DNA from: Eledone cirrhosa
Taxonomy: Eukaryota
Assembly: GCA_964016885.1 (NCBI GenBank)
Contig: OZ024743.1
Location: 68,324,001-68,388,000 of the forward strand
DNA: 64,000 nucleotides
Direction of reading: 5' to 3'
Shown: positions 2,792-60,493 of the stretch, one piece after another
Layout: every line of letters starts with the position of its first letter
Numbering within the stretch: position 1 is the stretch's first letter
Made by a program: the position numbers and the translations under genes
Notes under the pieces: model-generated
Databases searched by the model: none
The model's input: only the letters and a program-made list of their open reading frames with translations
Told to the model about the DNA's origin: nothing

Positions 2792-3457
2792 ATACAAATC
2801 TAGAGTGTGTTCAATACAAAACCCAGAAGGAGTTTTAAGATGATAACCACATCGAAGTTCATGTATAAATTCAAACATACATGGCTGTTTGCATCACAGA
2901 GCAAGGGGAGTAACTCTGACCGGTGTTTGAATAAGTGTCCCTAAATTATTATCCGTTCACATGATAATTATTCTCCACTACTATTTTATGGGTGCCAACT
3001 TACTACTGCTTAGTCAGGCCGGATCTACGAGGCATAGTTGGTATACAGATGTTTAATTATGCATCCCGTCATCCGGCGTGTTATGGTTTGGTGCAGGAGG
3101 ACCCGGTTTATGGTGTTCAGATATAAACCGGGGTCCAACCATAGAATTACTGCGGTATTCTGTGCCCGCATTTTATCACGGATTCTGCTCTGCTGTTGAT
3201 GAGATTTAGGGGTGCTCTTACGATATGGTAAAGCTCCATGAGACAGAGCTGGCACTTCCTCTTGAAGTTGTAAGGTGTTGCTCTGCTGACAATGTCCCAG
3301 TATGTAGAGAAGCTGATGTTACCTCTGACAAAACCAGGAAGCTGTATAAGATGGACGTGAGCAAGTACACAACAATTTATTTATAACGAATTACACAAAA
3401 ACTATAAAAAACACATCAATTAGTACCTTAAACGACATTAACAGGGTAGGTAACGAT

Positions 3458-4195
3458 ATGCAGACTAGCTTAGACATAGACAAGTACACTAACCCATATG
3501 TCCCTATGACACCTAGATTCTCTCTTAAGGATCACAAATGTAACTTTAATGAAAGCCCCTCTATTAGGTTAATATGTTCCTCTACATCAGATATAGGTAG
3601 GATTAGTAAAGGGATACTCGATAGAGTAATATTTGAACTTAATAGAAAAGCTAAGATCTGTCTCTGGAACAACACCGACCAGGTCATTATTTGGTTCATT
3701 GAGTTGCCCGATAAGACAGCTCTAAAGTTCATCCAGTTTGACATAGATAGTTACTATGCCTCTATCTCCCCCATACTCTTAAACAATGCCTCTATTTTAG
3801 CTAGATTTAACACTAGCCTCACTAAAAATGAGATAGATATAGTACTAGCAGCGCGCAGAACTATTATCCAGTTCGAGGGTTCACATTGGACCATAAACAA
3901 CCGTCCTGATAACTTCGATATCACGATGGGGTTAATTGACTCGGCGCAAGCAACTGATATGGTCGGCATATACCTCCTCCATAGACTTAGGGACGAGATC
4001 CCGGTCCTACGAGAAGGTGTATATAGGGACGACGCCCTATTTACTGTTAGGAACCATAGCCCCGACGCGATAGATAACCTTAACAAGCGCATGCACAGGT
4101 TCTTCAAATCATACGTAACTATAGACCTCAACCACCAGATAGTCAACTTCCTAGACGTGACACTGGAGTTGGATACGGGTCTGTACAAGCCATGA
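3458..4195 (+). pseudogene. PLE reverse transcriptase core fragment
   Basis: Motifs FIQFDIDSYYASI, FDITMG, catalytic YRDD and VNFLDVTL; frame broken downstream. Confidence 0.9.
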
Positions 4196-4277
4196 AATTC
4201 TATCATATATAAATTATGCATCCAACCACACTAAGTCTACTCTCAACTCCATAGTATATAGCATATCCCATAGGATC

Positions 4278-5727
4278 TTGAGGCTATCCGCCAAAGAGAA
4301 CATCTTCAACCTAGCTGCTGACTACTACCATAAAGCCTTGGTGGATGCCGGATATAACCGAAGAATCTCATACCTCCATAACGCAGACTCTAGAAACTAC
4401 CCCCATCATAGGACTAATGCAAGTCATACCTATAACCAAATATGCAGCGGTCATGCTAGAGTCAATAATTGTAGAATAGAAAATAGCACTAAGAAACACT
4501 GCCGTCGCGTTAACTACCTGGGTGGTGGCGTAGACGGTCTACCGCAAAATAAGGGTCAAGATACGGGCAACGGTAGCCGCTGTAACCTACTAGAATTATT
4601 TCCTGCCTATAGTATTAACAATAGTGATGGCCTATTTCCTACACCCTCCAACCGGCGTTTAGCTACACGTAAATGTAACGCAAGGAAAGCTAGTGCACCC
4701 GAACATAAAGCGAAGGCGATGCGCTGTAGGCTGCAGCACAGTTGCAATAATAAGAACGGTGACCTAGCCAACACGACCCGTAATAAGCATACGGCTCCGC
4801 GTAAACGCCAACGTAATGTCCAATGGTTCAATCCTCCCTACTCTTGGAGTGTAGCCTCTGACTTATCTAGAATATTCTTCGAAGCTTTAGAGAAGTACTT
4901 CCCACCCAACCATAAGTACAGAAACATCCTCAATAAGAACAATGTTAAAATATCCTTCTCTACTACACCTAATCTAGCAGACATCATAGGGATAACTAAT
5001 TACAGTAAACTCACCAAAACACGGCACCATAGCAGCGATAAGCCTAGACATGAAAGCACCTCTGATAGCCTTAACGTTTCCCTAGCAGCACTCGACAAGG
5101 TTGTTGGCAGCTCCAACAGACGCAACCGCCAAAACACATCACAACAGACGCAACAGCCAACGACATCACAAAATTGAACGACTAGTACTGGCGACTAGTA
5201 CGGGTTGCAAGGGGGTAGCAGAAGGCGCTGTGAAGCGTGTAGTGTTAATTGTACTACCCCACGTGCCTTTGTATATAATATTACTAACTACGGAGTTAGC
5301 GGCATTGGTGTGGATGATAACGTAGATAGTGATAGTAATAGTCTTACTTCGGGCACTAGAAGCCACCGCAGCGGCAGCGACCGTGGCGGACGCTGCAACT
5401 GTCGTGACCCGGGAAGCTGTCCGCTCATGGGGAAGTTGCCTGACTGACAATGTTATATACAGGTGCATTGTAACTAGCCATAACAGTGTCAAACATTATA
5501 TAGGGGCCATATCTGGCTCGTTTAAAACTAAATTTGGAACACATCTCCACTCTTTTAGAAACAGGAAGCTAAGGTACTATACATCACTCGGCAACTACAT
5601 CACAATATTGAACGACTCCAGCATCACCTTCTTCACATACTGGGAAATTGTCAGCAGGGCAACACCTTACAACTTCAAGAGGAAGTGCCAGCTCTGTCTC
5701 ATGGAGCTTTACCATATCGTAAGAGCA
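4278..5727 (+). pseudogene. PLE RT C-terminus/linker and GIY-YIG endonuclease, frameshifted
   Basis: WFNPPYS...YFPPNHKY...VKISFS; CNCR..CPL; VIYRC...HYIG; CQLC. Confidence 0.85.
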
Positions 5728-21500: not shown

Positions 21501-23460
21501 TTGAAAATGGTGGTGATGGGAGTGTTGGTGGTGGTCATGCTGATGGTGGTGGTGGTGGTGGTGGTAGTCGTCGTCGTAGTGTTGTTGGTGGTGGTCGTGG
21601 TAGTGATGGTGGTCGTCATGCTGATGGCGGTGGTGGTGGTGGTGGTGGTAGTCGTCGTCGTAGTGTTGTTGGTGGTGGTCGTGGTAGTGATGGTGGTCGT
21701 CATGCTGATGGCGGTGGTGGTGGTAGTCGTCGTCGTAAGTGTTGTTGGTGGTGATGGGAGTGTTGGTGGTGGTCATGCTGATGGTGGTGGTGGTGGTGGT
21801 GGTAGTCGTCGTGGTAGTGTTGTTGGTGGTGGTCGTGGTAGTGATGGTGGTCGTCATGCTGATGGCGGTGGTGGTGGTGGTGGTGGTAGTCGTCGTCGTA
21901 GTGTTGTTGGTGGTGGTCGTGGTAGTGATGGTGGTCGTCATGCTGATGGCGGTGGTGGTGGTAGTCGTCGTCGTAAGTGTTGTTGGTGGTGATGGGAGTG
22001 TTGGTGGTGGTCATGCTGATGGTGGTGGTGGTGGTGGTGGTAGTCGTCGTCGTAGTGTTGTTGGTGGTGGTCGTGGTAGTGATGGTGGTCGTCATGCTGA
22101 TGGCGGTGGTGGTGGTAGTCGTCGTCGTAGTGTTGTTGGTGGTGGTCGTGGTAGTGATGGTGGTCGTCATGCTGATGGCGGTGGTGGTGGTAGTCGTCGT
22201 CGTAGTGTTGTTGGTGGTGGTCGTGGTAGTGATGGTGGTCGTCATGCTGATGGCGGTGGTGGTGGTAGTCGTCGTCGTAAGTGTTGTTGGTGGTGATGGG
22301 AGTGTTGGTGGTGGTCATGCTGATGGTGGTGGTGGTGGTGGTGGTAGTCGTCGTGGTAGTGTTGTTGGTGGTGGTCCTGGTAGTGTTGGTGGTCGTCATG
22401 CTGATGGCGGCGGTGGTGGTGGTGGTGGTAGTCGTCGTCGTAGTGTTGTTGGTGGTGGTCGTGGTTGTGTTGGTGGTCGTCATGCTGATGGCGGCGGTGG
22501 TGGTGGTGGTGGTGGTGGTCGTCGTGGTAGTGTTGTTGGTGGTGGTCCTGGTAGTGTTGGTGGTCGTCATGCTGATGGCGGCGGTGGTGGTGGTGGTGGT
22601 AGTCGTCGTCGTAGTGTTGTTGGTGGTGGTCGTGGTTGTGTTGGTGGTCGTCATGCTGATGGCGGTGGTGGTGGTAGTCGTCGTCGTAAGTGTTGTTGGT
22701 GGTGATGGGAGTGTTGGTGGTGGTCATGCTGATGGTGGTGGTGGTGGTGGTGGTAGTCGTCGTCGTAGTGTTGTTGGTGGTGGTCCTGGTAGTGTTGGTG
22801 GTCGTCATGCTGATGGCGGCGGTGGTGGTGGTGGTGGTAGTCGTCGTCGTAGTGTTGTTGGTGGTGGTCGTGGTTGTGTTGGTGGTCGTCATGCTGATGG
22901 CGGCGGTGGTGGTGGTGGTGGTCGTCGTGGTAGTGTTGTTGGTGGTGGTCGTGGTTGTGTTGGTGGTCGTCATGCTGATGGCGGCGGTGGTGGTGGTGGT
23001 GGTGGTAGTCGTCGTCGTAGTGTTGTTGGTGGTGGTCGTGGTTGTGTTGGTGGTCGTCATGCTGATGGCGGTGGTGGTGGTAGTCGTCGTCGTAAGTGTT
23101 GTTGGTGGTGATGGGAGTGTTGGTGGTGGTCATGCTGATGGTGGTGGTGGTGGTGGTGGTAGTCGTCGTCGTAGTGTTGTTGGTGGTGGTCGTGGTAGTG
23201 ATGGTGGTGGTCATGCTGATGGTGGTGGTGGTGGTAGTCGTCGTCGTAGTGTTGTTGGTGGTGGTCGTGGTAGTGATGGTGGTCGTCATGCTGATGGCGG
23301 TGGTGGTGGTAGTCGTCGTCGTAGTGTTGTTGGTGGTGGTCCTGGTAGTGTTGGTGGTCGTCATGCTGATGGCGGCGGTGGTGGTGGTGGTGGTGGTAGT
23401 CGTCGTCGTAGTGTTGTTGGTGGTGGTCGTGGTTGTGTTGGTGGTCGTCATGCTGATGGC
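21501..23460. repeat. GGT-rich minisatellite, about 70-85-bp monomers in higher-order blocks
   Basis: Monomer GTAGTCGTCGTCGTAGTGTTGTTGGTGGTGGTCGTGGTAGTGATGGTGGTCGTCATGCTGATGGC(GGT)n; blocks of 238, 238, 304, 409 and 406 bp. Confidence 0.9.
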
Positions 23461-23482
23461 GGTGGGGCCGTCGTCGTCGTAG

Positions 23483-23513
<31 letters not shown>

Positions 23514-24318
23514 GGGAGTGGTGGTGTTGGTGGTGGTGGTCGTCGTCGTCGTACTGTCGGTAGTGGTGCTGCTGATGGTGGTAGTGGTGGTAGACGTCGT
23601 AGTGTTGGTGGCGGCGGTGGTGGTCGTCGTAGTGTTGGTGGTGGTAGTGGTGGTCGTCATAGTAGTGTTGGTGGTGGTGGTGATGGTGCAGGTGGTGGTG
23701 GTGGTATTGTTGTTGGTGGTGGTGGTGGTGTAGATGGTAGTGGTGGTGGTGGTAGTGGTGTAGATGGTAGTGGTCGTGGTGGTCGTCGTCGTCGTAGTGT
23801 TGGTGGCGGCGGTGGTGGTCGTCGTAGTGTTGGTGGAGGTGATGTTGGTGGTCGTCGTCGTAGTGGTGGTAATGGTGGTGGTGGTAGTAATAGTGGTTTT
23901 CGTGGTGGTGTTGGTGGTGGTGGTAGTGATGATGGTGGTGGGCGTGCTGATGGTGATGGTGGTGGTGGTGTTGGTAGTAGTGGTGGTGGTGTTGTAGATG
24001 GTAGTAGTGGTGGTGGTGGTGGTGGTAACAGTTTTGGTGGTCGCGGTGTTGGTTGTGGTGGTAGTGGTGGTGGTAGTGATGGTGGTGGTGGTAGTGTTGG
24101 TGTTATTTTTGTCGTTGTTGTGATAGTGGTGGTGGTAGTAATGGTGGTTGTCGTGGTTGTGGTAGTGCTGGTGGTGATGGTAGTGTTGGTTGTTGTTGTT
24201 GTGTGGTGGTGGTGACGGTGGTGGTGGTGATGGTGGTGGCAGTGGTAGAGTGATGGTGGTGATAGTGTTGGTTGTTGTTGTTGTGGTGGTGGTGGTGATG
24301 AGAGTGGTGGTGGTGGAC
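23461..24318. repeat. Degenerate (GGT/GTA/GTT)n trinucleotide tract
   Basis: Seen directly in the sequence. Confidence 0.9.
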
Positions 24319-41729: not shown

Positions 41730-41920
<191 letters not shown>

Positions 41921-42185
41921 GAAAGATTTGAATGGATACAGTTTAGTTGAAAGGAATTTATTGACACGTGTTTCTATAACAGTTACATAACCTAAAACAG
42001 CTGCTGTCTACAAACTTTTAGTTATGGAGACATTCAATATTTCAATGATATTATTTACTGTCATTTCATCAGAATAATATTACTGAGGACCTATTTAGTA
42101 TTTATACAGAATATTAGGAGGGAGGGGTGAAGTTGTTAGAAGAATATATATATATATACATATGTATATATATATATATATATAT

Positions 42186-45100
42186 ATAGATAATTTAATA
42201 TATCAACTAACATAAGCGCACAGATGCACGCCCATGCCAGCAAATACACAGGTTATGTCATAGTACCTAGGTGGTTCAATGCAGGAGAATGCAGAACAAT
42301 AATATAAAGGACGTAAAATAAGAAAATATTTTTTTAAAAAAAATTTAAAAAAAATTTTTTTCTTACTTAAATTTTCACTCCAACTAATTAGTTTCTGCAA
42401 TGGGATAAAGACAGTTACGTAATCCAACTGTCGAGAATTCATTGCGTCATCAGGAAGTCTATTCTCAGTTAAGTCTCCAGGCAATGCGCGGACACTGGCG
42501 GCTCATATAAAAATAATAATAATTCGGTAGATCGAACAGCTTGCGAGGACTGGATTCTATGTACCGAAATTCTCACTGCTTCAAGTCAAATGGCCGATTC
42601 TAAAGAATCAATCACGTGACACCGAGGCTAGTTAGAAGGAATGGGATGGTAAGATGACTGACGCCTACTAACACCCCAAAAAAAAATTTTTTTAGAAGTG
42701 GTTTTGACAAGTTTGCTCGACAAATCAGTGATTTGGAGATAAATATAGATAATTTAATATATCAACTAACATAAGCGCACAGATGCACGCCCATGCCAGC
42801 AAATACACAGGTTATGTCATAGTACCTAGGTGGTTCAATGCAGGAGAATGCAGAACAATAATATAAAGGACGTAAAATAAGAAAATATTTTTTTTAAAAA
42901 AATTTAAAAAAAATTTTTTTCTTACTTAAATTTTCACTCCAACTAATTAGTTTCTGCAATGGGATAAAGACAGTTACGTAATCCAACTGTCGAGAATTCA
43001 TTGCGTCATCAGGAAGTCTATTCTCAGTTAAGTCTCCAGGCAATGCGCGGACACTGGCGGCTCATATAAAAATAATAATAATTCGGTAGATCGAACAGCT
43101 TGCGAGGACTGGATTCTATGTACCGAAATTCTCACTGCTTCAAGTCAAATGGCCGATTCTAAAGAATCAATCACGTGACACCGAGGCTAGTTAGAAGGAA
43201 TGGGATGGTAAGATGACTGACGCCTACTAACACCCCAAAAAAAAAATTTTTTTAGAAGTGGTTTTGACAAGTTTGCTCGACAAATCAGTGATTTGGAGAT
43301 AAATATAGATAATTTAATATATCAACTAACATAAGCGCACAGATGCACGCCCATGCCAGCAAATACACAGGTTATGTCATAGTACCTAGGTGGTTCAATG
43401 CAGGAGAATGCAGAACAATAATATAAAGGACGTAAAATAAGAAAATATTTTTTTTTTTAAAATTTAAAAAAAATTTTTTTCTTACTTAAATTTTCACTCC
43501 AACTAATTAGTTTCTGCAATGGGATAAAGACAGTTACGTAATCCAACTGTCGAGAATTCATTGCGTCATCAGGAAGTCTATTCTCAGTTAAGTCTCCAGG
43601 CAATGCGCGGACACTGGCGGCTCATATAAAAATAATAATAATTCGGTAGATCGAACAGCTTGCGAGGACTGGATTCTATGTACCGAAATTCTCACTGCTT
43701 CAAGTCAAATGGCCGATTCTAAAGAATCAATCACGTGACACCGAGGCTAGTTAGAAGGAATGGGATGGTAAGATGACTGACGCCTACTAACACCCCAAAA
43801 AAAAATTTTTTTAGAAGTGGTTTTGACAAGTTTGCTCGACAAATCAGTGATTTGGAGATAAATATAGATAATTTAATATATCAACTAACATAAGCGCACA
43901 GATGCACGCCCATGCCAGCAAATACACAGGTTATGTCATAGTACCTAGGTGGTTCAATGCAGGAGAATGCAGAACAATAATATAAAGGACGTAAAATAAG
44001 AAAATATTTTTTAAAAAAAAATTTAAAAAAAATTTTTTTCTTACTTAAACTTTCACTCCAACTAATTAGTTTCTGCAATGGGATAAAGACAGTTACGTAA
44101 TCCAACTGTCGAGAATTCATTGCGTCATCAGGAAGTCTATTCTCAGTTAAGTCTCCAGGCAATGCGCGGACACTGGCGGCTCATATAAAAATAATAATAA
44201 TTCGGTAGATCGAACAGCTTGCGAGGACTGGATTCTATGTACCGAAATTCTCACTGCTTCAAGTCAAATGGCCGATTCTAAAGAATCAATCACGTGACAC
44301 CGAGGCTAGTTAGAAGGAATGGGATGGTAAGATGACTGACGCCTACTAACACCCCAAAAAAAAATTTTTTTAGAAGTGGTTTTGACAAGTTTGCTCGACA
44401 AATCAGTGATTTGGAGATAAATATAGATAATTTAATATATCAACTAACATAAGCGCACAGATGCACGCCCATGCCAGCAAATACACAGGTTATGTCATAG
44501 TACCTAGGTGGTTCAATGCAGGAGAATGCAGAACAATAATATAAAGGACGTAAAATAAGAAAATATTTTTTTTAAAAAAATTTAAAAAAAATTTTTTTCT
44601 TACTTAAATTTTCACTCCAACTAATTAGTTTCTGCAATGGGATAAAGACAGTTACGTAATCCAACTGTCGAGAATTCATTGCGTCATCAGGAAGTCTATT
44701 CTCAGTTAAGTCTCCAGGCAATGCGCGGACACTGGCGGCTCATATAAAAATAATAATAATTCGGTAGATCGAACAGCTTGCGAGGACTGGATTCTATGTA
44801 CCGAAATTCTCACTGCTTCAAGTCAAATGGCCGATTCTAAAGAATCAATCACGTGACACCGAGGCTAGTTAGAAGGAATGGGATGGTAAGATGACTGACG
44901 CCTACTAACACCCCAAAAAAAAATTTTTTTAGAAGTGGTTTTGACAAGTTTGCTCGACAAATCAGTGATTTGGAGATAAATATAGATAATTTAATATATC
45001 AACTAACATAAGCGCACAGATGCACGCCCATGCCAGCAAATACACAGGTTATGTCATAGTACCTAGGTGGTTCAATGCAGGAGAATGCAGAACAATAATA

Positions 45101-48100
45101 TAAAGGACGTAAAATAAGAAAATATTTTTAAAAAAAAAATTTAAAAAAAATTTTTTTCTTACTTAAACTTTCACTCCAACTAATTAGTTTCTGCAATGGG
45201 ATAAAGACAGTTACGTAATCCAACTGTCGAGAATTCATTGCGTCATCAGGAAGTCTATTCTCAGTTAAGTCTCCAGGCAATGCGCGGACACTGGCGGCTC
45301 ATATAAAAATAATAATAATTCGGTAGATCGAACAGCTTGCGAGGACTGGATTCTATGTACCGAAATTCTCACTGCTTCAAGTCAAATGGCCGATTCTAAA
45401 GAATCAATCACGTGACACCGAGGCTAGTTAGAAGGAATGGGATGGTAAGATGACTGACGCCTACTAACACCCCAAAAAAAAATTTTTTTAGAAGTGGTTT
45501 TGACAAGTTTGCTCGACAAATCAGTGATTTGGAGATAAATATAGATAATTTAATATATCAACTAACATAAGCGCACAGATGCACGCCCATGCCAGCAAAT
45601 ACACAGGTTATGTCATAGTACCTAGGTGGTTCAATGCAGGAGAATGCAGAACAATAATATAAAGGACGTAAAATAAGAAAATATTTTTTAAAAAAAAATT
45701 TAAAAAAAATTTTTTTCTTACTTAAACTTTCACTCCAACTAATTAGTTTCTGCAATGGGATAAAGACAGTTACGTAATCCAACTGTCGAGAATTCATTGC
45801 GTCATCAGGAAGTCTATTCTCAGTTAAGTCTCCAGGCAATGCGCGGACACTGGCGGCTCATATAAAAATAATAATAATTCGGTAGATCGAACAGCTTGCG
45901 AGGACTGGATTCTATGTACCGAAATTCTCACTGCTTCAAGTCAAATGGCCGATTCTAAAGAATCAATCACGTGACACCGAGGCTAGTTAGAAGGAATGGG
46001 ATGGTAAGATGACTGACGCCTACTAACACCCCAAAAAAAAATTTTTTTAGAAGTGGTTTTGACAAGTTTGCTCGACAAATCAGTGATTTGGAGATAAATA
46101 TAGATAATTTAATATATCAACTAACATAAGCGCACAGATGCACGCCCATGCCAGCAAATACACAGGTTATGTCATAGTACCTAGGTGGTTCAATGCAGGA
46201 GAATGCAGAACAATAATATAAAGGACGTAAAATAAGAAAATATTTTTTTTAAAAAAATTTAAAAAAAATTTTTTTCTTACTTAAATTTTCACTCCAACTA
46301 ATTAGTTTCTGCAATGGGATAAAGACAGTTACGTAATCCAACTGTCGAGAATTCATTGCGTCATCAGGAAGTCTATTCTCAGTTAAGTCTCCAGGCAATG
46401 CGCGGACACTGGCGGCTCATATAAAAATAATAATAATTCGGTAGATCGAACAGCTTGCGAGGACTGGATTCTATGTACCGAAATTCTCACTGCTTCAAGT
46501 CAAATGGCCGATTCTAAAGAATCAATCACGTGACACCGAGGCTAGTTAGAAGGAATGGGATGGTAAGATGACTGACGCCTACTAACACCCCAAAAAAAAA
46601 TTTTTTTAGAAGTGGTTTTGACAAGTTTGCTCGACAAATCAGTGATTTGGAGATAAATATAGATAATTTAATATATCAACTAACATAAGCGCACAGATGC
46701 ACGCCCATGCCAGCAAATACACAGGTTATGTCATAGTACCTAGGTGGTTCAATGCAGGAGAATGCAGAACAATAATATAAAGGACGTAAAATAAGAAAAT
46801 ATTTTTAAAAAAAAAATTTAAAAAAAATTTTTTTCTTACTTAAACTTTCACTCCAACTAATTAGTTTCTGCAATGGGATAAAGACAGTTACGTAATCCAA
46901 CTGTCGAGAATTCATTGCGTCATCAGGAAGTCTATTCTCAGTTAAGTCTCCAGGCAATGCGCGGACACTGGCGGCTCATATAAAAATAATAATAATTCGG
47001 TAGATCGAACAGCTTGCGAGGACTGGATTCTATGTACCGAAATTCTCACTGCTTCAAGTCAAATGGCCGATTCTAAAGAATCAATCACGTGACACCGAGG
47101 CTAGTTAGAAGGAATGGGATGGTAAGATGACTGACGCCTACTAACACCCCAAAAAAAAATTTTTTTAGAAGTGGTTTTGACAAGTTTGCTCGACAAATCA
47201 GTGATTTGGAGATAAATATAGATAATTTAATATATCAACTAACATAAGCGCACAGATGCACGCCCATGCCAGCAAATACACAGGTTATGTCATAGTACCT
47301 AGGTGGTTCAATGCAGGAGAATGCAGAACAATAATATAAAGGACGTAAAATAAGAAAATATTTTTTTTAAAAAAATTTAAAAAAAATTTTTTTCTTACTT
47401 AAATTTTCACTCCAACTAATTAGTTTCTGCAATGGGATAAAGACAGTTACGTAATCCAACTGTCGAGAATTCATTGCGTCATCAGGAAGTCTATTCTCAG
47501 TTAAGTCTCCAGGCAATGCGCGGACACTGGCGGCTCATATAAAAATAATAATAATTCGGTAGATCGAACAGCTTGCGAGGACTGGATTCTATGTACCGAA
47601 ATTCTCACTGCTTCAAGTCAAATGGCCGATTCTAAAGAATCAATCACGTGACACCGAGGCTAGTTAGAAGGAATGGGATGGTAAGATGACTGACGCCTAC
47701 TAACACCCCAAAAAAAAAATTTTTTTAGAAGTGGTTTTGACAAGTTTGCTCGACAAATCAGTGATTTGGAGATAAATATAGATAATTTAATATATCAACT
47801 AACATAAGCGCACAGATGCACGCCCATGCCAGCAAATACACAGGTTATGTCATAGTACCTAGGTGGTTCAATGCAGGAGAATGCAGAACAATAATATAAA
47901 GGACGTAAAATAAGAAAATATTTTTTTTTTTAAAATTTAAAAAAAATTTTTTTCTTACTTAAATTTTCACTCCAACTAATTAGTTTCTGCAATGGGATAA
48001 AGACAGTTACGTAATCCAACTGTCGAGAATTCATTGCGTCATCAGGAAGTCTATTCTCAGTTAAGTCTCCAGGCAATGCGCGGACACTGGCGGCTCATAT

Positions 48101-50683
48101 AAAAATAATAATAATTCGGTAGATCGAACAGCTTGCGAGGACTGGATTCTATGTACCGAAATTCTCACTGCTTCAAGTCAAATGGCCGATTCTAAAGAAT
48201 CAATCACGTGACACCGAGGCTAGTTAGAAGGAATGGGATGGTAAGATGACTGACGCCTACTAACACCCCAAAAAAAAATTTTTTTAGAAGTGGTTTTGAC
48301 AAGTTTGCTCGACAAATCAGTGATTTGGAGATAAATATAGATAATTTAATATATCAACTAACATAAGCGCACAGATGCACGCCCATGCCAGCAAATACAC
48401 AGGTTATGTCATAGTACCTAGGTGGTTCAATGCAGGAGAATGCAGAACAATAATATAAAGGACGTAAAATAAGAAAATATTTTTTAAAAAAAAATTTAAA
48501 AAAAATTTTTTTCTTACTTAAACTTTCACTCCAACTAATTAGTTTCTGCAATGGGATAAAGACAGTTACGTAATCCAACTGTCGAGAATTCATTGCGTCA
48601 TCAGGAAGTCTATTCTCAGTTAAGTCTCCAGGCAATGCGCGGACACTGGCGGCTCATATAAAAATAATAATAATTCGGTAGATCGAACAGCTTGCGAGGA
48701 CTGGATTCTATGTACCGAAATTCTCACTGCTTCAAGTCAAATGGCCGATTCTAAAGAATCAATCACGTGACACCGAGGCTAGTTAGAAGGAATGGGATGG
48801 TAAGATGACTGACGCCTACTAACACCCCAAAAAAAAATTTTTTTAGAAGTGGTTTTGACAAGTTTGCTCGACAAATCAGTGATTTGGAGATAAATATAGA
48901 TAATTTAATATATCAACTAACATAAGCGCACAGATGCACGCCCATGCCAGCAAATACACAGGTTATGTCATAGTACCTAGGTGGTTCAATGCAGGAGAAT
49001 GCAGAACAATAATATAAAGGACGTAAAATAAGAAAATATTTTTTTAAAAAAAATTTAAAAAAAATTTTTTTCTTACTTAAATTTTCACTCCAACTAATTA
49101 GTTTCTGCAATGGGATAAAGACAGTTACGTAATCCAACTGTCGAGAATTCATTGCGTCATCAGGAAGTCTATTCTCAGTTAAGTCTCCAGGCAATGCGCG
49201 GACACTGGCGGCTCATATAAAAATAATAATAATTCGGTAGATCGAACAGCTTGCGAGGACTGGATTCTATGTACCGAAATTCTCACTGCTTCAAGTCAAA
49301 TGGCCGATTCTAAAGAATCAATCACGTGACACCGAGGCTAGTTAGAAGGAATGGGATGGTAAGATGACTGACGCCTACTAACACCCCAAAAAAAAATTTT
49401 TTTAGAAGTGGTTTTGACAAGTTTGCTCGACAAATCAGTGATTTGGAGATAAATATAGATAATTTAATATATCAACTAACATAAGCGCACAGATGCACGC
49501 CCATGCCAGCAAATACACAGGTTATGTCATAGTACCTAGGTGGTTCAATGCAGGAGAATGCAGAACAATAATATAAAGGACGTAAAATAAGAAAATATTT
49601 TTTAAAAAAAAATTTAAAAAAAATTTTTTTCTTACTTAAACTTTCACTCCAACTAATTAGTTTCTGCAATGGGATAAAGACAGTTACGTAATCCAACTGT
49701 CGAGAATTCATTGCGTCATCAGGAAGTCTATTCTCAGTTAAGTCTCCAGGCAATGCGCGGACACTGGCGGCTCATATAAAAATAATAATAATTCGGTAGA
49801 TCGAACAGCTTGCGAGGACTGGATTCTATGTACCGAAATTCTCACTGCTTCAAGTCAAATGGCCGATTCTAAAGAATCAATCACGTGACACCGAGGCTAG
49901 TTAGAAGGAATGGGATGGTAAGATGACTGACGCCTACTAACACCCCAAAAAAAAATTTTTTTAGAAGTGGTTTTGACAAGTTTGCTCGACAAATCAGTGA
50001 TTTGGAGATAAATATAGATAATTTAATATATCAACTAACATAAGCGCACAGATGCACGCCCATGCCAGCAAATACACAGGTTATGTCATAGTACCTAGGT
50101 GGTTCAATGCAGGAGAATGCAGAACAATAATATAAAGGACGTAAAATAAGAAAATATTTTTTTAAAAAAAATTTAAAAAAAATTTTTTTCTTACTTAAAT
50201 TTTCACTCCAACTAATTAGTTTCTGCAATGGGATAAAGACAGTTACGTAATCCAACTGTCGAGAATTCATTGCGTCATCAGGAAGTCTATTCTCAGTTAA
50301 GTCTCCAGGCAATGCGCGGACACTGGCGGCTCATATAAAAATAATAATAATTCGGTAGATCGAACAGCTTGCGAGGACTGGATTCTATGTACCGAAATTC
50401 TCACTGCTTCAAGTCAAATGGCCGATTCTAAAGAATCAATCACGTGACACCGAGGCTAGTTAGAAGGAATGGGATGGTAAGATGACTGACGCCTACTAAC
50501 ACCCCAAAAAAAAAATTTTTTTAGAAGTGGTTTTGACAAGTTTGCTCGACAAATCAGTGATTTGGAGATAAAACGTAACTGTCTTTATCCCATTGCAGAA
50601 ACTAATTAGTTGGAGTGAAAATTTAAGTAAGAAAAAAATTTTTTTTTAATTTTTTTTAAATAAATATTTTCTTATTTTACGTC

Positions 50684-50690
<7 letters not shown>
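42186..50690 (-). mobile_element. Retrozyme-like tandem array: 15 x 559/560-bp units plus an inverted terminal arm (50573-50690), embedded in (TA)n
   Basis: Unit starts at 42186, 42745, 43305, 43864, 44423, 44982, 45541, 46100, 46659, 47218, 47778, 48337, 48896, 49455 and 50014. Units are near-identical and each contains an HHR. Confidence 0.85.
42377..42458 (-). ncRNA. Type I hammerhead ribozyme (unit 1; repeated in all 15 units)
   Basis: ACUUC-CUGAUGA-C-GCAAUG[loop containing hairpin GACAGUU/AACUGUC]CAUUGC-A-GAA-ACUAAUUAGU-U^GGAGU. Predicted cut between 42382 and 42381. Confidence 0.8.
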
Positions 50691-50750
<60 letters not shown>

Positions 50751-50756
50751 GATATG

Positions 50757-50850
<94 letters not shown>

Positions 50851-50856
50851 GATATG

Positions 50857-50903
<47 letters not shown>

Positions 50904-50905
<2 letters not shown>

Positions 50906-52973
50906 CAGGTTTAGTGCTCTGTGTGGAGAGTCAGAGGAGAGAGAGATTGGATGGACTGAGGAGAGTGTGACGAGGAGGTACGGGCACTTCACCAATGCAG
51001 TGGCGAAAGCAAGTGAAACCCTGGTGCCGAGGAAAAAGAACAAAGGGAAGCACGTCAGCTCTGCAGACCCAAAAGTGTGTGCAGCCAGAGAACACCTGAA
51101 AGCTGCCAGGGACCAATTCTATGCTGATCCTACGGAGGAGAGGATGGAGACTGTGGAGGTGATGAGGGAAGAGCTCTGTACCGCTTACACTGAGGTCAGA
51201 GAGGAGGCACTGATAGAGAAGATCAGAAGTGTGGAGAGAGCGGTTGACAGATCTGGATGTAAGGAGAGCTGGATGATCATCAACGAGATCACAGGGAGGA
51301 AGAAAAGGTGTTCGAGTCAGATCCAGGGAACGGGGCCCGAGGATAGGAAGAGGAAATGGCTAGACCATTTTAGGACCCTACTAGGAGAGCCACCCTCCAC
51401 AGCCCAGAGCACTGGGGAGATCAGGCGGCTGTTTGAGGAACTGGATGTTGAGACAGAGCCCTTCACCAGAGAGGAGCTTCAGAGAGCCAAGAAGAAGATC
51501 AAGGAGGGCAAGGCTCATGGAGAAGATGGAGTAGCATCAGAGGTGATGAAGTGGTGTGATTTTGATGATATCATCCTGGGGTTCTGTAACGGGGCACTGG
51601 AGAAGGGAGTTGCCCCGAATCAGTGGAGGATCAGTAACATCGTCCCAGTGCCAAAGAAGGGAGATCTCTCTAACACCAACAACTACCGGGGGATCTCACT
51701 GACGTCACTTGTGGCAAAGACCCTCAACAGGATGATTCTTAACAGGATCCAGCCTGAGATGGAGAAGAAGCTCAGGGACAACCAGAACGGCTTCAGAGAG
51801 GGTAGATCAACCACCAGTCACATCCTGATGCTGAGGAGGATATTAGAGGGAGCTAGAGCAAAGTGCCTTCCTGCGGTCATGGTTTTCATTGACTTTAGGA
51901 AGGCCTTTGATTCTGTGGACCGTTACTGCCTGATGAAGATCTTACAGGCTTATGGAATCCCCAAGAGGATAGTGGACCTGATATCACTGCTCTACACCAA
52001 CACCAAAGCCCAAGTCATTACACCTGATGGGATGACAGAGTTCTTTGAGATACTGGCTGGAGTGCTCCAGGGAGATACATTGGCTCCCTACCTTTTTATC
52101 ATCGTAGTGGACTATTGTATGCGCCTTGCACTGGAGAAACACCAGGACTCTGGCTTTACTGTAGCACCGGCTCAGAGCAGGAGAGTTGGGGCGAAAAAGG
52201 TATCGGATGCTGAATTTGCCGACGACATAGTTTTGGTGACAAATACAGTGAAGGAGGCAGAGGATTTGATGCGGGAGGTTGAGACTGTGTCGATGAGTGT
52301 GGGGCTGAGAATGAATGAGACTAAAACAAAATATCTGGTAGAGAATGTTGAGAAGCCAGAGGGGATCACTAATGTAGGCGGGAAGCCGCTGGAATTGGTT
52401 GAGGACTTCCTGTATTTGGGAGCAAAGATTGGGAATACGGAAGATGATGTGGTTGAGAGGAAGAGCAAGGCCTGGGCAGCGTGCCACAGCTTGAGATCGG
52501 TGTGGAAGTCGGACCTTCGTAGAGACCTGAAAATCCGCCTCTTCATTGCTGTAGTGGAGTCTGTGCTGCTGTATGGGTCTGAGACTTGGACACTGACCAA
52601 GAGACTCACTCAGATGGTGGATGGGTGCTACACGAGAATGCTGAGGATGGCTCTGAACATTAATCAGTATACACTGAGGATGAAAAACTCAGAGCTGTAT
52701 GGGAGCCTCCCAAAAGTCAGCTCAAAAGTGACACAGAGGAGACTGAGGTTGGCTGGACATGCTCACCGACATCCAGAGTTGACATTGCACTCCGTGCTCC
52801 TTTGGGAGCCCCTACATGGACACACTGGAAGAGGAAGACCAAGGTTAACATATGTTGATGCCCTAAGGACAGACACTGGTCTGTTGGAGACGCAGGACAT
52901 GGCAGCGATAATGAGGGACAGAGACCGCTGGAGAGAACTCGTCCATGGATCTCGGGAATTTTACCCGCCTTAG
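50904..52973 (+). mobile_element. 5'-truncated RTE-clade LINE with an uninterrupted RT reading frame
   Basis: [62 protein letters not shown]. No stops; (TA)n on both sides; no APE domain. Confidence 0.93.
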
Positions 52974-57852: not shown

Positions 57853-58083
57853 TATACGGGGTAACCAATTATTGTTATAGGTAGTCCACTTAAGTGTAGT
57901 CCAGTTATGGTACTCCGCGTAGTGGATGATATCAACGCTTGACTAAGTTTGACTCAACAAGACGTTTCCATAATGATGCTGCGAGTACGCTGTAATTCCT
58001 ATGTTGTAAACACTTGGAGTAATGATAAATCAGGAAAGAAGAGTGACACGGTTTGCTATACAAAAAAGGTTTTTAATCTCATT

Positions 58084-58189
58084 GCTGACAATTGTTTCTC
58101 TGAACTGGTAGGTCTAGAGATCGCTACCCGCTTATTTTCACGTTATTCGATCACCAATACAAAGTTATAACCAGTCAATTCATCGGAGC
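58084..58189 (-). ncRNA. Candidate HHR with U4C core and long stem II (inverted copy at 60291-60422)
   Basis: GCU-CCGAUGA-..UGACUGGU...ACCAGUUCA..-GAA-ACAAUUGU-C^AGC. Confidence 0.5.
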
Positions 58190-58965
58190 TTGTGAGAATG
58201 TAAGGAATATACAGGCATGGCTACTATATCTAGTAGTAATGGCATTCAATCAGAACAACAACAACAATACTAACAATGCTAGCAATAAATTATTTGAAAT
58301 AATCACAATATCAATCTAGGTCGGAAGTATAGTATATCTACGATTTTAGCGTGTAAAACTAGCTGACATGAGGCAGATGTATAAAATTGACATGTAAAAG
58401 CTGTCATGGGGTGTATTATATATAGTGTAAAGATAAGCCGGTGTCTTTAAACAATATAGGTCTGGTGGCCGTAAGAATCGATTATTATCTGACAGATGAA
58501 GAATTTATCACTGTAGTGAGATTTGTGTGGTCTATATTAGATGAAAGGGTTGTTTGGCTTTCTCATCATCAATAACATACATGTATAAGACAACATTAAC
58601 AGAGTAGCAATATAATGGGCAAGTTAATACAGAGGTTAAGGAGGCAATATATATATATACATACATGCACACAAATATATATATATATATATATACATAC
58701 ACGTATATACATACATATAAAGAGAAAACATGCTGACTATAATTATAACAGGAGGAAGGTAAAGTTCTGTTGTAGTAGTATTTTGAAATGTACTTGGATT
58801 TAGGTTCAAGTGCTGACAGCAGCTGAGAAGGGATACGCTTATGGGTTGATGAGGTACTTACAGACATTAGTGTGGTATAGAACTAAGAAGGCTAGAATGT
58901 ACTTAATGATTATATTTCTGTGGTGGGTCGTGCAGTGTAGTGGGTATCCTAAGTTGAAAGCTAGG

Positions 58966-59410
58966 TTACGTCGGTTCGATTAACGGAGGTTTAAATCTTG
59001 TGAATTTAGTGGTGATCCTGTGTCTGCAGAAGATAGATCTTTCTAACTTGTTGTTAAGTAGCCTTTTAACATTTCTAAGGATATACAGTAATTCTAGATC
59101 ACATAGCCTACAGTGGGAAATACCGGTACTGTAGGTATTTGCGGCCGACAACCTCGACCAGTTGATACTGTAGTTGGTGTTGTTGTCCTTAAGTTCCCAG
59201 ATTTTTTTGGCGAAGGTTGTAGAACCCATCAGTGCACGATTTTTCATCGAGTGTCTGTGTACATACCATCTTTTTTTAAAAGTACCCGCGGTGGATCCAA
59301 TGTAATGCCAAGTGGAGTTGTCTGAGTTGACCGTACACATGTACACTAGGCTCGAATCGAGGCATCTATTCGCCAATGGGCACCTATCCGGTAGATGACA
59401 GTTACAGGTT
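58966..59410 (-). pseudogene. PLE GIY-YIG endonuclease domain
   Basis: CNC..CPL..CL..SLVY...HYIGST..FKKRW..H...IWELK...CRLC..E...LN...CRH. Confidence 0.88.
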
Positions 59411-60493
59411 GAGGTGTTATTTCATGCAGCTTCTACACTGCTGTTTTGTACACTGCTATAAGTGGGTTGTGATTCATGCCCGTTGGGGTTTTGCTGATGC
59501 GTGCTTGTGTGCGCTTGCGGTTGTGATACTGTGAGGTGTTTATGCTTATAATTTGGTGCTATGTTGCACATAGATGGGGCGGATAACCTAGATATATTTC
59601 TGTGGTTGATCTTGCGTATGTGCGATTCTATATTTGCTGCCGTAGAGTATGAGAGTTTTATAGTGTTTCTATTGAGTATTTTATGATATATGTGTGAAAT
59701 AGGGAAGTGTTTATCTATTAGTTTAAAGAATGTAGAAGGCAGTCTGGTTTTTACAGAGGAGTTGAAGATTCGGTTGATTCATAGGTATTTTCTTTCTCTG
59801 ATTGTTCTATTGTTTCTAGGGTTTACATTATTGGTGTTTGGACCGCTTACTCTAGGTGCTACGTGCCTAACCCTTATGTCTAGTCCTGTTACCTCTATTT
59901 TTGTGTGAGCGGTTGGTGTAATTGTTATTAGGTTTGTTTAAGTTGTCTTTATTCGCTATATACTGCAGTTTATCTTTATGTCCAGCCCTATGTAATGCGT
60001 TATACTTACGGCCACCAGACCTATATTGTTTAAAGACACCGGCTTATCTTTACACTAGATATAATACACCCTATGACAGTTTTCACATGTCAATTTTATA
60101 CAGCTGCCTCATGTCAGCTAGTTTTACACGCTAAAATCGTAGATATACTATACTTCCCACCTAGATTGATATTGTGATTATTTCAAATAATTTATTGCTA
60201 GCATTGATAGTATTGTTGTTATTGTTCTGGTTGAATGCCATTACTACTATATATAGTAGCTATGCCTGTATATTCTTTACATTCAAACAAGCTCCGATGA
60301 ATTGACTGGTTATAACTTTGTATTGGTGATCGAATAACGTGAAAATAAGCGGGTAGCGATCTCTAGACCTACCAGTTCAGAGAAACAATTCAGAGAAACA
60401 ATTCAGAGAAACAATTGTCAGCAATGAGATTAAAAACTTTTTTTGTATAGCAAACCGTGTCACTATTCTTTCCTGATTTATATATATATATAT

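Follow-up and report, generated by a model that had tools for sequence, protein, structure and literature searches.

A young family of non-coding hammerhead retrozymes in Eledone cirrhosa, likely copied into (TA)n by a Penelope-like element of the Hydra clade

Introduction

In this study, we describe a family of tandem repeats with hammerhead ribozymes in the genome of Eledone cirrhosa, starting from a 64,000-bp stretch of contig OZ024743.1 (assembly GCA_964016885.1, positions 68,324,001 to 68,388,000), referred to as the window in the following. We propose that these repeats constitute a young family of non-coding retrozymes, which is likely copied into (TA)n by a Penelope-like element (PLE) of the Hydra clade from a predicted RNA circle of 559 nt, and we assign this reading a probability of about 0.7. 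Its parts differ in strength: we have little doubt that the array in the window is a real retrozyme of the type without long terminal repeats (non-LTR), consider it very probable that Hydra-type PLE machinery moves it, and regard movement mainly from a circular monomer as probable.

The mode of movement of animal retrozymes, the element behind it and the role of hammerheads in PLEs are open questions in the literature considered here, where the route from circles to tandem complementary DNA (cDNA) and the PLE partner are put forward as hypotheses (PMC7229834; PMC7761336; bioRxiv 10.64898/2026.07.22.740005). The present family is young and numerous enough for each step of the life cycle to be read from the genome, and its candidate partner has intact reading frames. 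The proposed life cycle thereby becomes a defined in vitro question, involving one protein, one 559-nt RNA and a (TA)n target.

Results

The array in the window

The units of the long arm start at 42189, 42748 ... 50017, at a step of 559-560 bp, and the last base lies at 50572 (Table 1). An earlier note, made from the letters of this DNA, had described an array of 15 units of about 559 bp within (TA)n, and this description holds on both counts. Likewise, the inverted partial copy that it reported at the right end is present, although its length by BLAST is 119 bp rather than 118 bp. Target-site duplications are unreadable inside (TA)n. The monomer has a G+C content of 0.36 and a longest ATG frame of 79 amino acids (aa). 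Since the units differ only in columns 146-151 (a T/A run), 184 and 490, the ribozyme is identical in all 15 of them.

Table 1. Features of the array and of related elements in the window
Feature	Position	Strand	Remarks
Left flank, 229-bp terminal piece of PLE-2	41918..42146	-	96% identical; own long-stem-II hammerhead; ends at own site A
(TA)n target, left of array	42144..42188		
Start site B, left junction	42184..42189	+	5-base ATATA overlap, (TA)n target/element
Long arm, 15 tandem units of 559-560 bp, cDNA sense	42189..50572	+	begins at start site B; RNA would be the minus strand
Type I hammerhead, unit 1	42377..42458	-	unit positions 189-270; unchanged every 559-560 bp; long stem II, C.A mismatch, palindromic stem III
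Predicted self-cleavage site	42381..42382	-	unit position 194/193; arm ends of other insertions concentrate here
Well-conserved TCACGTGA block, E-box-like	42609..42618		
Two-part motif TATA-WTTAnCTCC-N(5-14)-GTCGAGCAA	42713..42747	-	just 3' of site B on the RNA; common to two Hydra-type PLE families
Short inverted arm, 119 bp	50573..50691	-	unit positions 114-232; begins at start site A, right (TA)n
Start site A, right junction	50687..50691	-	5-base ATATA overlap; internal copy in unit 1 at 42302-42306
(TA)n target, right of array	50687..50904		
Decayed two-armed PLE-1 copy	57854..60481		70-81% to intact copy

With 8,384 bp, the array is atypical in size, the 60 other arms compared measuring at most 4,083 bp. 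Its unit types form the series a b c d e f d e f b c d a d g. With haplotypes coming back block by block, the 15 copies cannot represent a single product of reverse transcription. Judging from this order, the 15-mer is one enlarged after insertion through DNA-level duplication, an assembly error being less likely.

Two features outside the ribozyme deserve mention. At unit positions 139-153, the boundary between T and A moves between units while the total stays at 15 (T11A4 to T5A10), which looks like micro-inversions or runs of misincorporation; this palindromic tract, which lies after the ribozyme, is also the place of many arm junctions. Homopolymer lengths differ from unit to unit. By eye and without a dedicated scan, we saw no convincing internal promoter, and a promoter role for the E-box-like block TCACGTGA would be a guess.

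The hammerhead ribozyme

The minus strand of each unit can be folded into a type I hammerhead with stem I ACUUC/GGAGU, core CUGAUGA, a C.A mismatch, stem II GCAAUG/CAUUGC, GAAA and a GUU cleavage triplet, in which stem II encloses an inner 8-bp hairpin and stem III is the palindrome ACUAAUUAGU. A descriptor of this structure matches the real minus strand and none of 3000 dinucleotide shuffles. Further support comes from 30 natural variants, which were hand-chosen from 67 distinct ribozyme sequences and aligned: 96.5% of 592 cells pair and 68 cells are changed on both sides, counts that are inflated by relatedness, and 0 of 500 shuffles reach this level of covariation. Stem II is 100% paired, with its pair 18-68 found as GC, UA, CG and AU, while the pairing of stem III is uninformative because this stem belonged to the pattern by which the variants were selected. 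On such comparative evidence, the fold is backed by covariation across subfamilies. Among the core variants observed, position 7 is the most variable, and variability at this position is a known property of hammerheads.

The folding-energy signal is weak (z -1.7 on either strand). In the 64-kb window, Rfam gave no match at the gathering score and no hammerhead family among 14 matches at E<=10. The earlier note had remarked that the long stem II loop hides the ribozyme from simple motif scans; its placing of a type I hammerhead on the minus strand of every unit is borne out by the results above. Between two units, the predicted 10-bp stem III duplex is worth -9.0 kcal/mol, so that activity may depend on a dimer.

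A family with many copies

A search of the species' own 3.0-Gb assembly with the unit returned 580 candidates; the 40 that were scored yielded 210 matches, the best of them 97-100% identical, and insertions joined to (TA)n, as had been expected of a retrozyme with dispersed copies. Exact copies of a 19-base motif from the ribozyme number 12,089 in the genome (control 0), and exact patterns for the ends of the young subfamily recover at least 418 site-B and at least 283 site-A ends genome-wide. Eleven representative monomers of 521-559 nt are 70-91% identical to the window unit, with the ribozyme and both start sites as conserved blocks. By these counts, the window array is one of hundreds of young insertions, and there are about 12,000 ribozyme copies when older subfamilies are included. 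Of the features by which retrozymes are recognized, we found tandem units with type I hammerheads, no coding capacity, a G+C content below 50%, many dispersed loci and PLEs in the same genome. No LTR-like layout was found in 37 loci; a primer-binding site and a polypurine tract were not searched for.

Two fixed start sites

In these 37 loci (the window and its 36 best matches), insertions start either at unit position 1 (site B) or at unit position 114 (site A), with a 5-base ATATA overlap with (TA)n at both sites, and their far ends lie at scattered positions. We read the fixed starts as those of cDNA primed from the target, which would make the ribozyme strand the template. The two sites are used in pairs: the range covered by both end lists (C1, and C2 up to 154 Mb) holds 63 A and 100 B ends, which form 44 inward-facing pairs no more than 15 kb apart, and every one of these combines A with B; the single other close pair is B,B in the same direction. 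The arms of inverted insertions join mostly with 0-7 bases of overlap, and both start sites are retained in older subfamilies. The family thus has an optional tail arising from two starts, an inverted truncated arm and a microsatellite target, as expected of a non-autonomous PLE.

Arm ends at the predicted cut site

None of 105 arms from mostly long loci ends at unit positions 190-197, and 3 of 65 arms from 40 less biased loci end at 193-194, as do both arms of L224. A targeted search of the whole genome found 11 loci in which both arms run to the final base of the 3' product and carry 0-3 further bases, as well as six single arms at (TA)n with the same stop. In a wider-gap search, positions 193-194 account for 34 of 78 arm ends, and in 17 of 39 loci both arms stop at 192-195, compared with about 8 of 36 ends in the best two-base bin and at most two loci per position in a control stretch; these tallies are hand counts with a few duplicate or chance rows kept in n. 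Among ten fetched cut-site loci, six have an A and a B arm that stop on the first pass, three have one arm that went round once more, and one is cut short. The arm ends thereby mark, independently of the fold, the predicted cleavage site 42382/42381 named in the earlier note. Their accumulation may be a fossil left behind by cellular cleavage; stalling at a ligation scar would produce the same picture, and either way the site would have been used.

A second, unexplained stop lies at unit positions 263-264 (window ~42451), at the 5' edge of the catalytic core, where 6 of the 105 arm ends fall at 260-266.

One template per insertion

We followed sequence changes through the units of 59 young loci (347 pieces), masking three homopolymer tracts and 20 bases at arm ends and leaving out a local duplicate (L170) and an older, complex locus (L171). 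In 53 locus-allele cases, all units that cover the position have the change; 37 of these cases extend over both arms, and 14 are private to a single locus. The remaining cases are 50 single-unit and 4 intermediate ones, and no single-unit allele was found in another locus. Private changes that are fixed through whole insertions are as expected from repeated, rolling-circle copying of one monomer. In addition, of 462 passages over the cut site in 156 loci, a few of which overlap, 459 are exact and one has a single added base; this speaks for a continuous template and against end-to-end jumps.

These data bear on two alternatives that share the PLE machinery. In the first, which we consider unlikely, the template would be a linear read-through multimer, uncut or partly cut, and the uniformity of the units would stem from DNA-level homogenization or from short founders that expanded later. 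It agrees with the DNA-level duplication in the window array, with the preference of the anole PLE for unprocessed RNA as its main substrate in vitro, as given in the consulted part of PMC11167929, and with three of the ten fetched loci (L264-L266), where one arm crosses the cut site once and stops on the second pass, as would fit a dimer with a cut 5' end. However, a private change can be fixed in as many as 12 units and in both inverted arms, no single-unit variant was passed to other loci, no junction between arms recurs among the loci compared, and without a circle the copy number could only shrink with each jump. In the second, improbable alternative, the template would be a cut linear monomer, and tandem copies would arise as the enzyme jumps from its 5' end to its 3' end. 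One such molecule would also fix private changes, and run-off at the cut site points to the use of linear cut RNA; yet these terminal run-offs carry 0-3 extra bases, whereas the internal passages are almost always exact.

As for the PLEs, direct tandem copies of PLE-2 in one locus differ at 1/1869 and 1/663 bases, compared with 1.1-1.7% between loci; for one further PLE-2 pair and two PLE-1 pairs, the gap within versus between loci is not clear.

Candidate partners among the PLEs

A PLE endonuclease fragment from the window has 59,521 first-look candidates in the genome. We examined two families, PLE-1 and PLE-2, which both have RWK, DKT and CxCX5C, a C-terminal endonuclease, a hammerhead and a (TA)n target, an assignment made by eye from translations and not by tree. 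PLE-1 has open frames of up to 812 aa, two fixed ends in (TA)n and a repeat at ~3.6 kb; in PLE-2, two of the three loci have frames, of 777 and 794 aa, copies are 97-99% alike, and the hammerhead combines a long stem II with an A.A mismatch and a palindromic stem III. Pfam gave no family for the proteins of either. A homologue search returned 305 matches, with relatives at 31-43% among the 120 matches listed and a bryozoan and an octopod as the two named hosts. We considered the near-universal TGA in PLE matches as a selenocysteine codon and rejected this; it is a real stop codon. One PLE-1 end (L121:1758-1876) has a variant hammerhead with the core CCGAAGA (U4 to C) and a very long stem II.

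The insertion pattern of PLE-2 matches that of the retrozyme: it has 1,076 B and 1,364 A ends, and all 44 inward pairs among 100 A and 84 B ends are A+B, the three other close pairs not being inward-facing. The order of cut site, site A and site B is the same in the retrozyme and in both PLEs, and the distance from site A to site B, counting 0-2 bases of overlap, is ~118 nt in the retrozyme, ~115 in PLE-2 and ~173 in PLE-1. Moreover, all three have the two-part motif in common (Table 1), which lies at site B and upstream of the ATG in the PLEs and is likely a protein-recognition element. Genome-wide it has 4,408 exact matches (control 0), of which the first 100 listed comprise 95 retrozyme-type, 2 PLE-1 and 3 PLE-2 sequences. 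It never arose when a PLE unit was shuffled 2000 times, a result that flatters it since the motif was noticed first and tested afterwards. In PLE-2 (L221 ~4000-4080), the GTCGAGCAA half of the motif is found twice, once after each start site, and in the retrozyme only after site B.

The two-site rule, the geometry and the motif thus speak for the PLE partner inserting at (TA)n that the earlier note had proposed. Which element acts is open between PLE-1, PLE-2 and a sister family, with PLE-2 fitting best by tail length. A mover of another kind, be it a PLE of a different family or clade or an RTE-like long interspersed nuclear element such as that at 50905-52973, is very improbable: the many first-look candidates point to many PLE families, only two of which were examined, and no long sequence is common to these and the retrozyme, but the agreement with Hydra-type families in all three respects argues against it. 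Finally, an ordinary satellite that spreads as DNA through unequal exchange or extrachromosomal circles, with the ribozyme as a passenger, would account for the block duplications within the window array but is hardly tenable: the insertions begin at fixed points with one polarity while their far ends are random, they sit in (TA)n and have inverted arms, arm ends fall at the cut site, and the ribozyme shows covariation.

Other elements in the window and in other loci

On the plus strand of the window, 3350-5177 holds a decayed Hydra-type PLE frame, which is 67-76% identical to PLE-1 and PLE-2 over short stretches, and 50905-52973 a reverse-transcriptase frame of ~690 aa (RVT_1, E 3e-33) that adjoins the right (TA)n, is RTE-like by eye and has no N-terminal endonuclease. 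Pfam gave no family for the window frames at 3350, 4161, 28497 and 58966. Three further hammerhead-like motifs of other families lie on the minus strand at ~2175, 26275 and 30334, one type recurring in L117, L122 and L124. A 2.8-kb (TGG)-rich array at 21508-24316 has a period of 75-84 and several open frames for Thr/His-rich low-complexity peptides.

Outside the window, a second, distantly similar tandem family of ~572 bp lies in (TA)n at a PLE-1 end (L117:899-1957). It has its own long-stem-II hammerhead with an A.G mismatch and the stem III ACCGAUCGGU, the same predicted inactive fold as the present family (see below) and a weaker form of the two-part motif. A mariner-like transposase frame (by eye) is found beside a PLE-1 copy on the minus strand of L222 (4886-5779).

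Discussion

We envisage the following life cycle. Read-through RNA of the minus strand would be cut by the ribozyme and joined into monomer circles of 559 nt. A PLE protein, probably as a dimer, would bind near the two sites just 3' of the cut and nick (TA)n, whereupon both DNA ends would prime reverse transcription through the 5-base ATATA match, one at site A and the other at site B. Each enzyme would then travel round the circle for a random distance, and the two cDNAs would be joined with 0-7 bases of overlap. Where cut but unjoined RNA serves as the template, the arms would run off at the cut site. The window array would later have been enlarged by DNA duplications.

Several points weigh against this reading. 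The isolated ribozyme is predicted to favour an inactive fold (-19.9 vs -17.4 kcal/mol) with the core paired to stem III. In the predicted ensemble of the whole circle, the probability of stems I and II is close to zero, and a C.A mismatch sits at the base of stem II. In related systems, 8 of 9 Xenopus retrozyme dimers failed to cleave (bioRxiv 10.64898/2026.07.22.740005, in the part consulted), and for the anole PLE, whose main substrate was unprocessed RNA, ribozyme cleavage was dispensable in vitro (PMC11167929, likewise in part). Regarding the insertions, there is one of type A+A on C3 (L169), the loci in which private alleles were followed are biased to long, young insertions, and arrays turn over at the DNA level, which could homogenize units. 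Lastly, apart from the two-part motif, the retrozyme has no alignable DNA homology to PLE-1 or PLE-2, with only matches of 10-21 bases (best E 0.07), and BLAST of the unit against 32 PLE loci found nothing but nested retrozyme copies.

Copying of a circular monomer by Hydra-type PLE machinery nonetheless remains the reading that we prefer. As a tentative extension, which we regard as possible though doubtful, Hydra-type PLEs might themselves replicate via ribozyme-made RNA circles, with a protein dimer on two marked sites, one half on each, copying into both ends of the (TA)n break. The near-identity of the direct tandem copies within one PLE-2 locus described above is a pointer in this direction. 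Such a cycle would account for pseudo-LTRs, tails and inverted arms in PLEs and would assign a function to their hammerheads. The 559-nt retrozyme would then be a minimal substrate and the two-part motif an address label; the inactive fold would protect the monomer circle, and the palindromic stem III would let tandem transcripts cut as dimers. Beyond this, the family makes the birth of a satellite from a retrozyme insertion visible.

Comparison with known systems

In the titles and abstract openings that we searched, we found no report of start-site pairing, of a motif common with the partner or of cut-site run-off for retrozymes; most subscription journals lie outside this search, and supplements may hold the family or similar analyses of ends. 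The consulted parts of two publications on animal non-LTR retrozymes (PMC7229834; PMC7761336) describe elements that resemble the present family in their non-coding tandem units with a type I hammerhead each, their low G+C content, their many loci and the PLEs in the same genome. In axolotl, stem II of the Amex2 ribozyme is likewise mismatched at its base (PMC7229834). The present family differs in its longer unit (521-571 bp, compared with 150-450 bp), in a long stem II that Rfam misses and in its (TA)n targets (PMC7229834). Its insertions are mostly two-armed and inverted, with two fixed starts, and it has a motif in common with its likely partner, whereas animal retrozymes have none that points to a partner according to the part of the review considered (PMC7761336). 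Circular RNA has been demonstrated for the retrozymes in PMC7229834, whereas the circle of the present family is a predicted one.

For Xenopus, the consulted part of bioRxiv 10.64898/2026.07.22.740005 presents retrozymes as derivatives of PLE pseudo-LTRs with units of 51-972 bp. They are likewise non-autonomous partners of PLEs, and their range covers the window unit; the earlier note had called the unit long for its class, but at 559 nt its length is unremarkable. In Xenopus, pseudo-LTR homology provides the link to PLEs, and local unequal crossover is given as the origin of the arrays, whereas here the link lies in the signature of the insertions and in a short motif, and insertion itself seems to have produced most arrays. 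The terms 'tail', 'priming' and 'insertion site' do not occur in the text searched.

Compared with the Hydra-clade PLEs in the consulted section of PMC8557442, PLE-1 and PLE-2 have the same protein motifs, C-terminal endonuclease, hammerheads and (TA)n targets, while the PLE-1 repeat is longer (~3.6 kb as opposed to <3 kb); the section does not mention non-autonomous partners of this clade. That inverted PLE copies have a tail at one end has long been known (PMC8557442; PMC3846280, in the parts consulted) and is explained by two start sites (PMC11167929). The closest mechanistic parallel is the Poseidon PLE of Anolis, for which, in the part of PMC11167929 considered, two internal starts and extension of both strands were demonstrated in vitro. 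As in the present family, its two starts lie 3' of the hammerhead and give an optional tail, both target strands are extended, the target is AT-rich and a dimer is predicted. However, the tail measures 30-40 bp in Poseidon and ~118 in the present family, Poseidon shows no target homology where we find the 5-base ATATA overlap, and it gave no reads at the ribozyme cut, where we find arm ends. Finally, the start sites of Poseidon are not strand-specific, whereas our insertions use strictly one of each, a one-site-per-arm rule that had not emerged from the published in vitro system.

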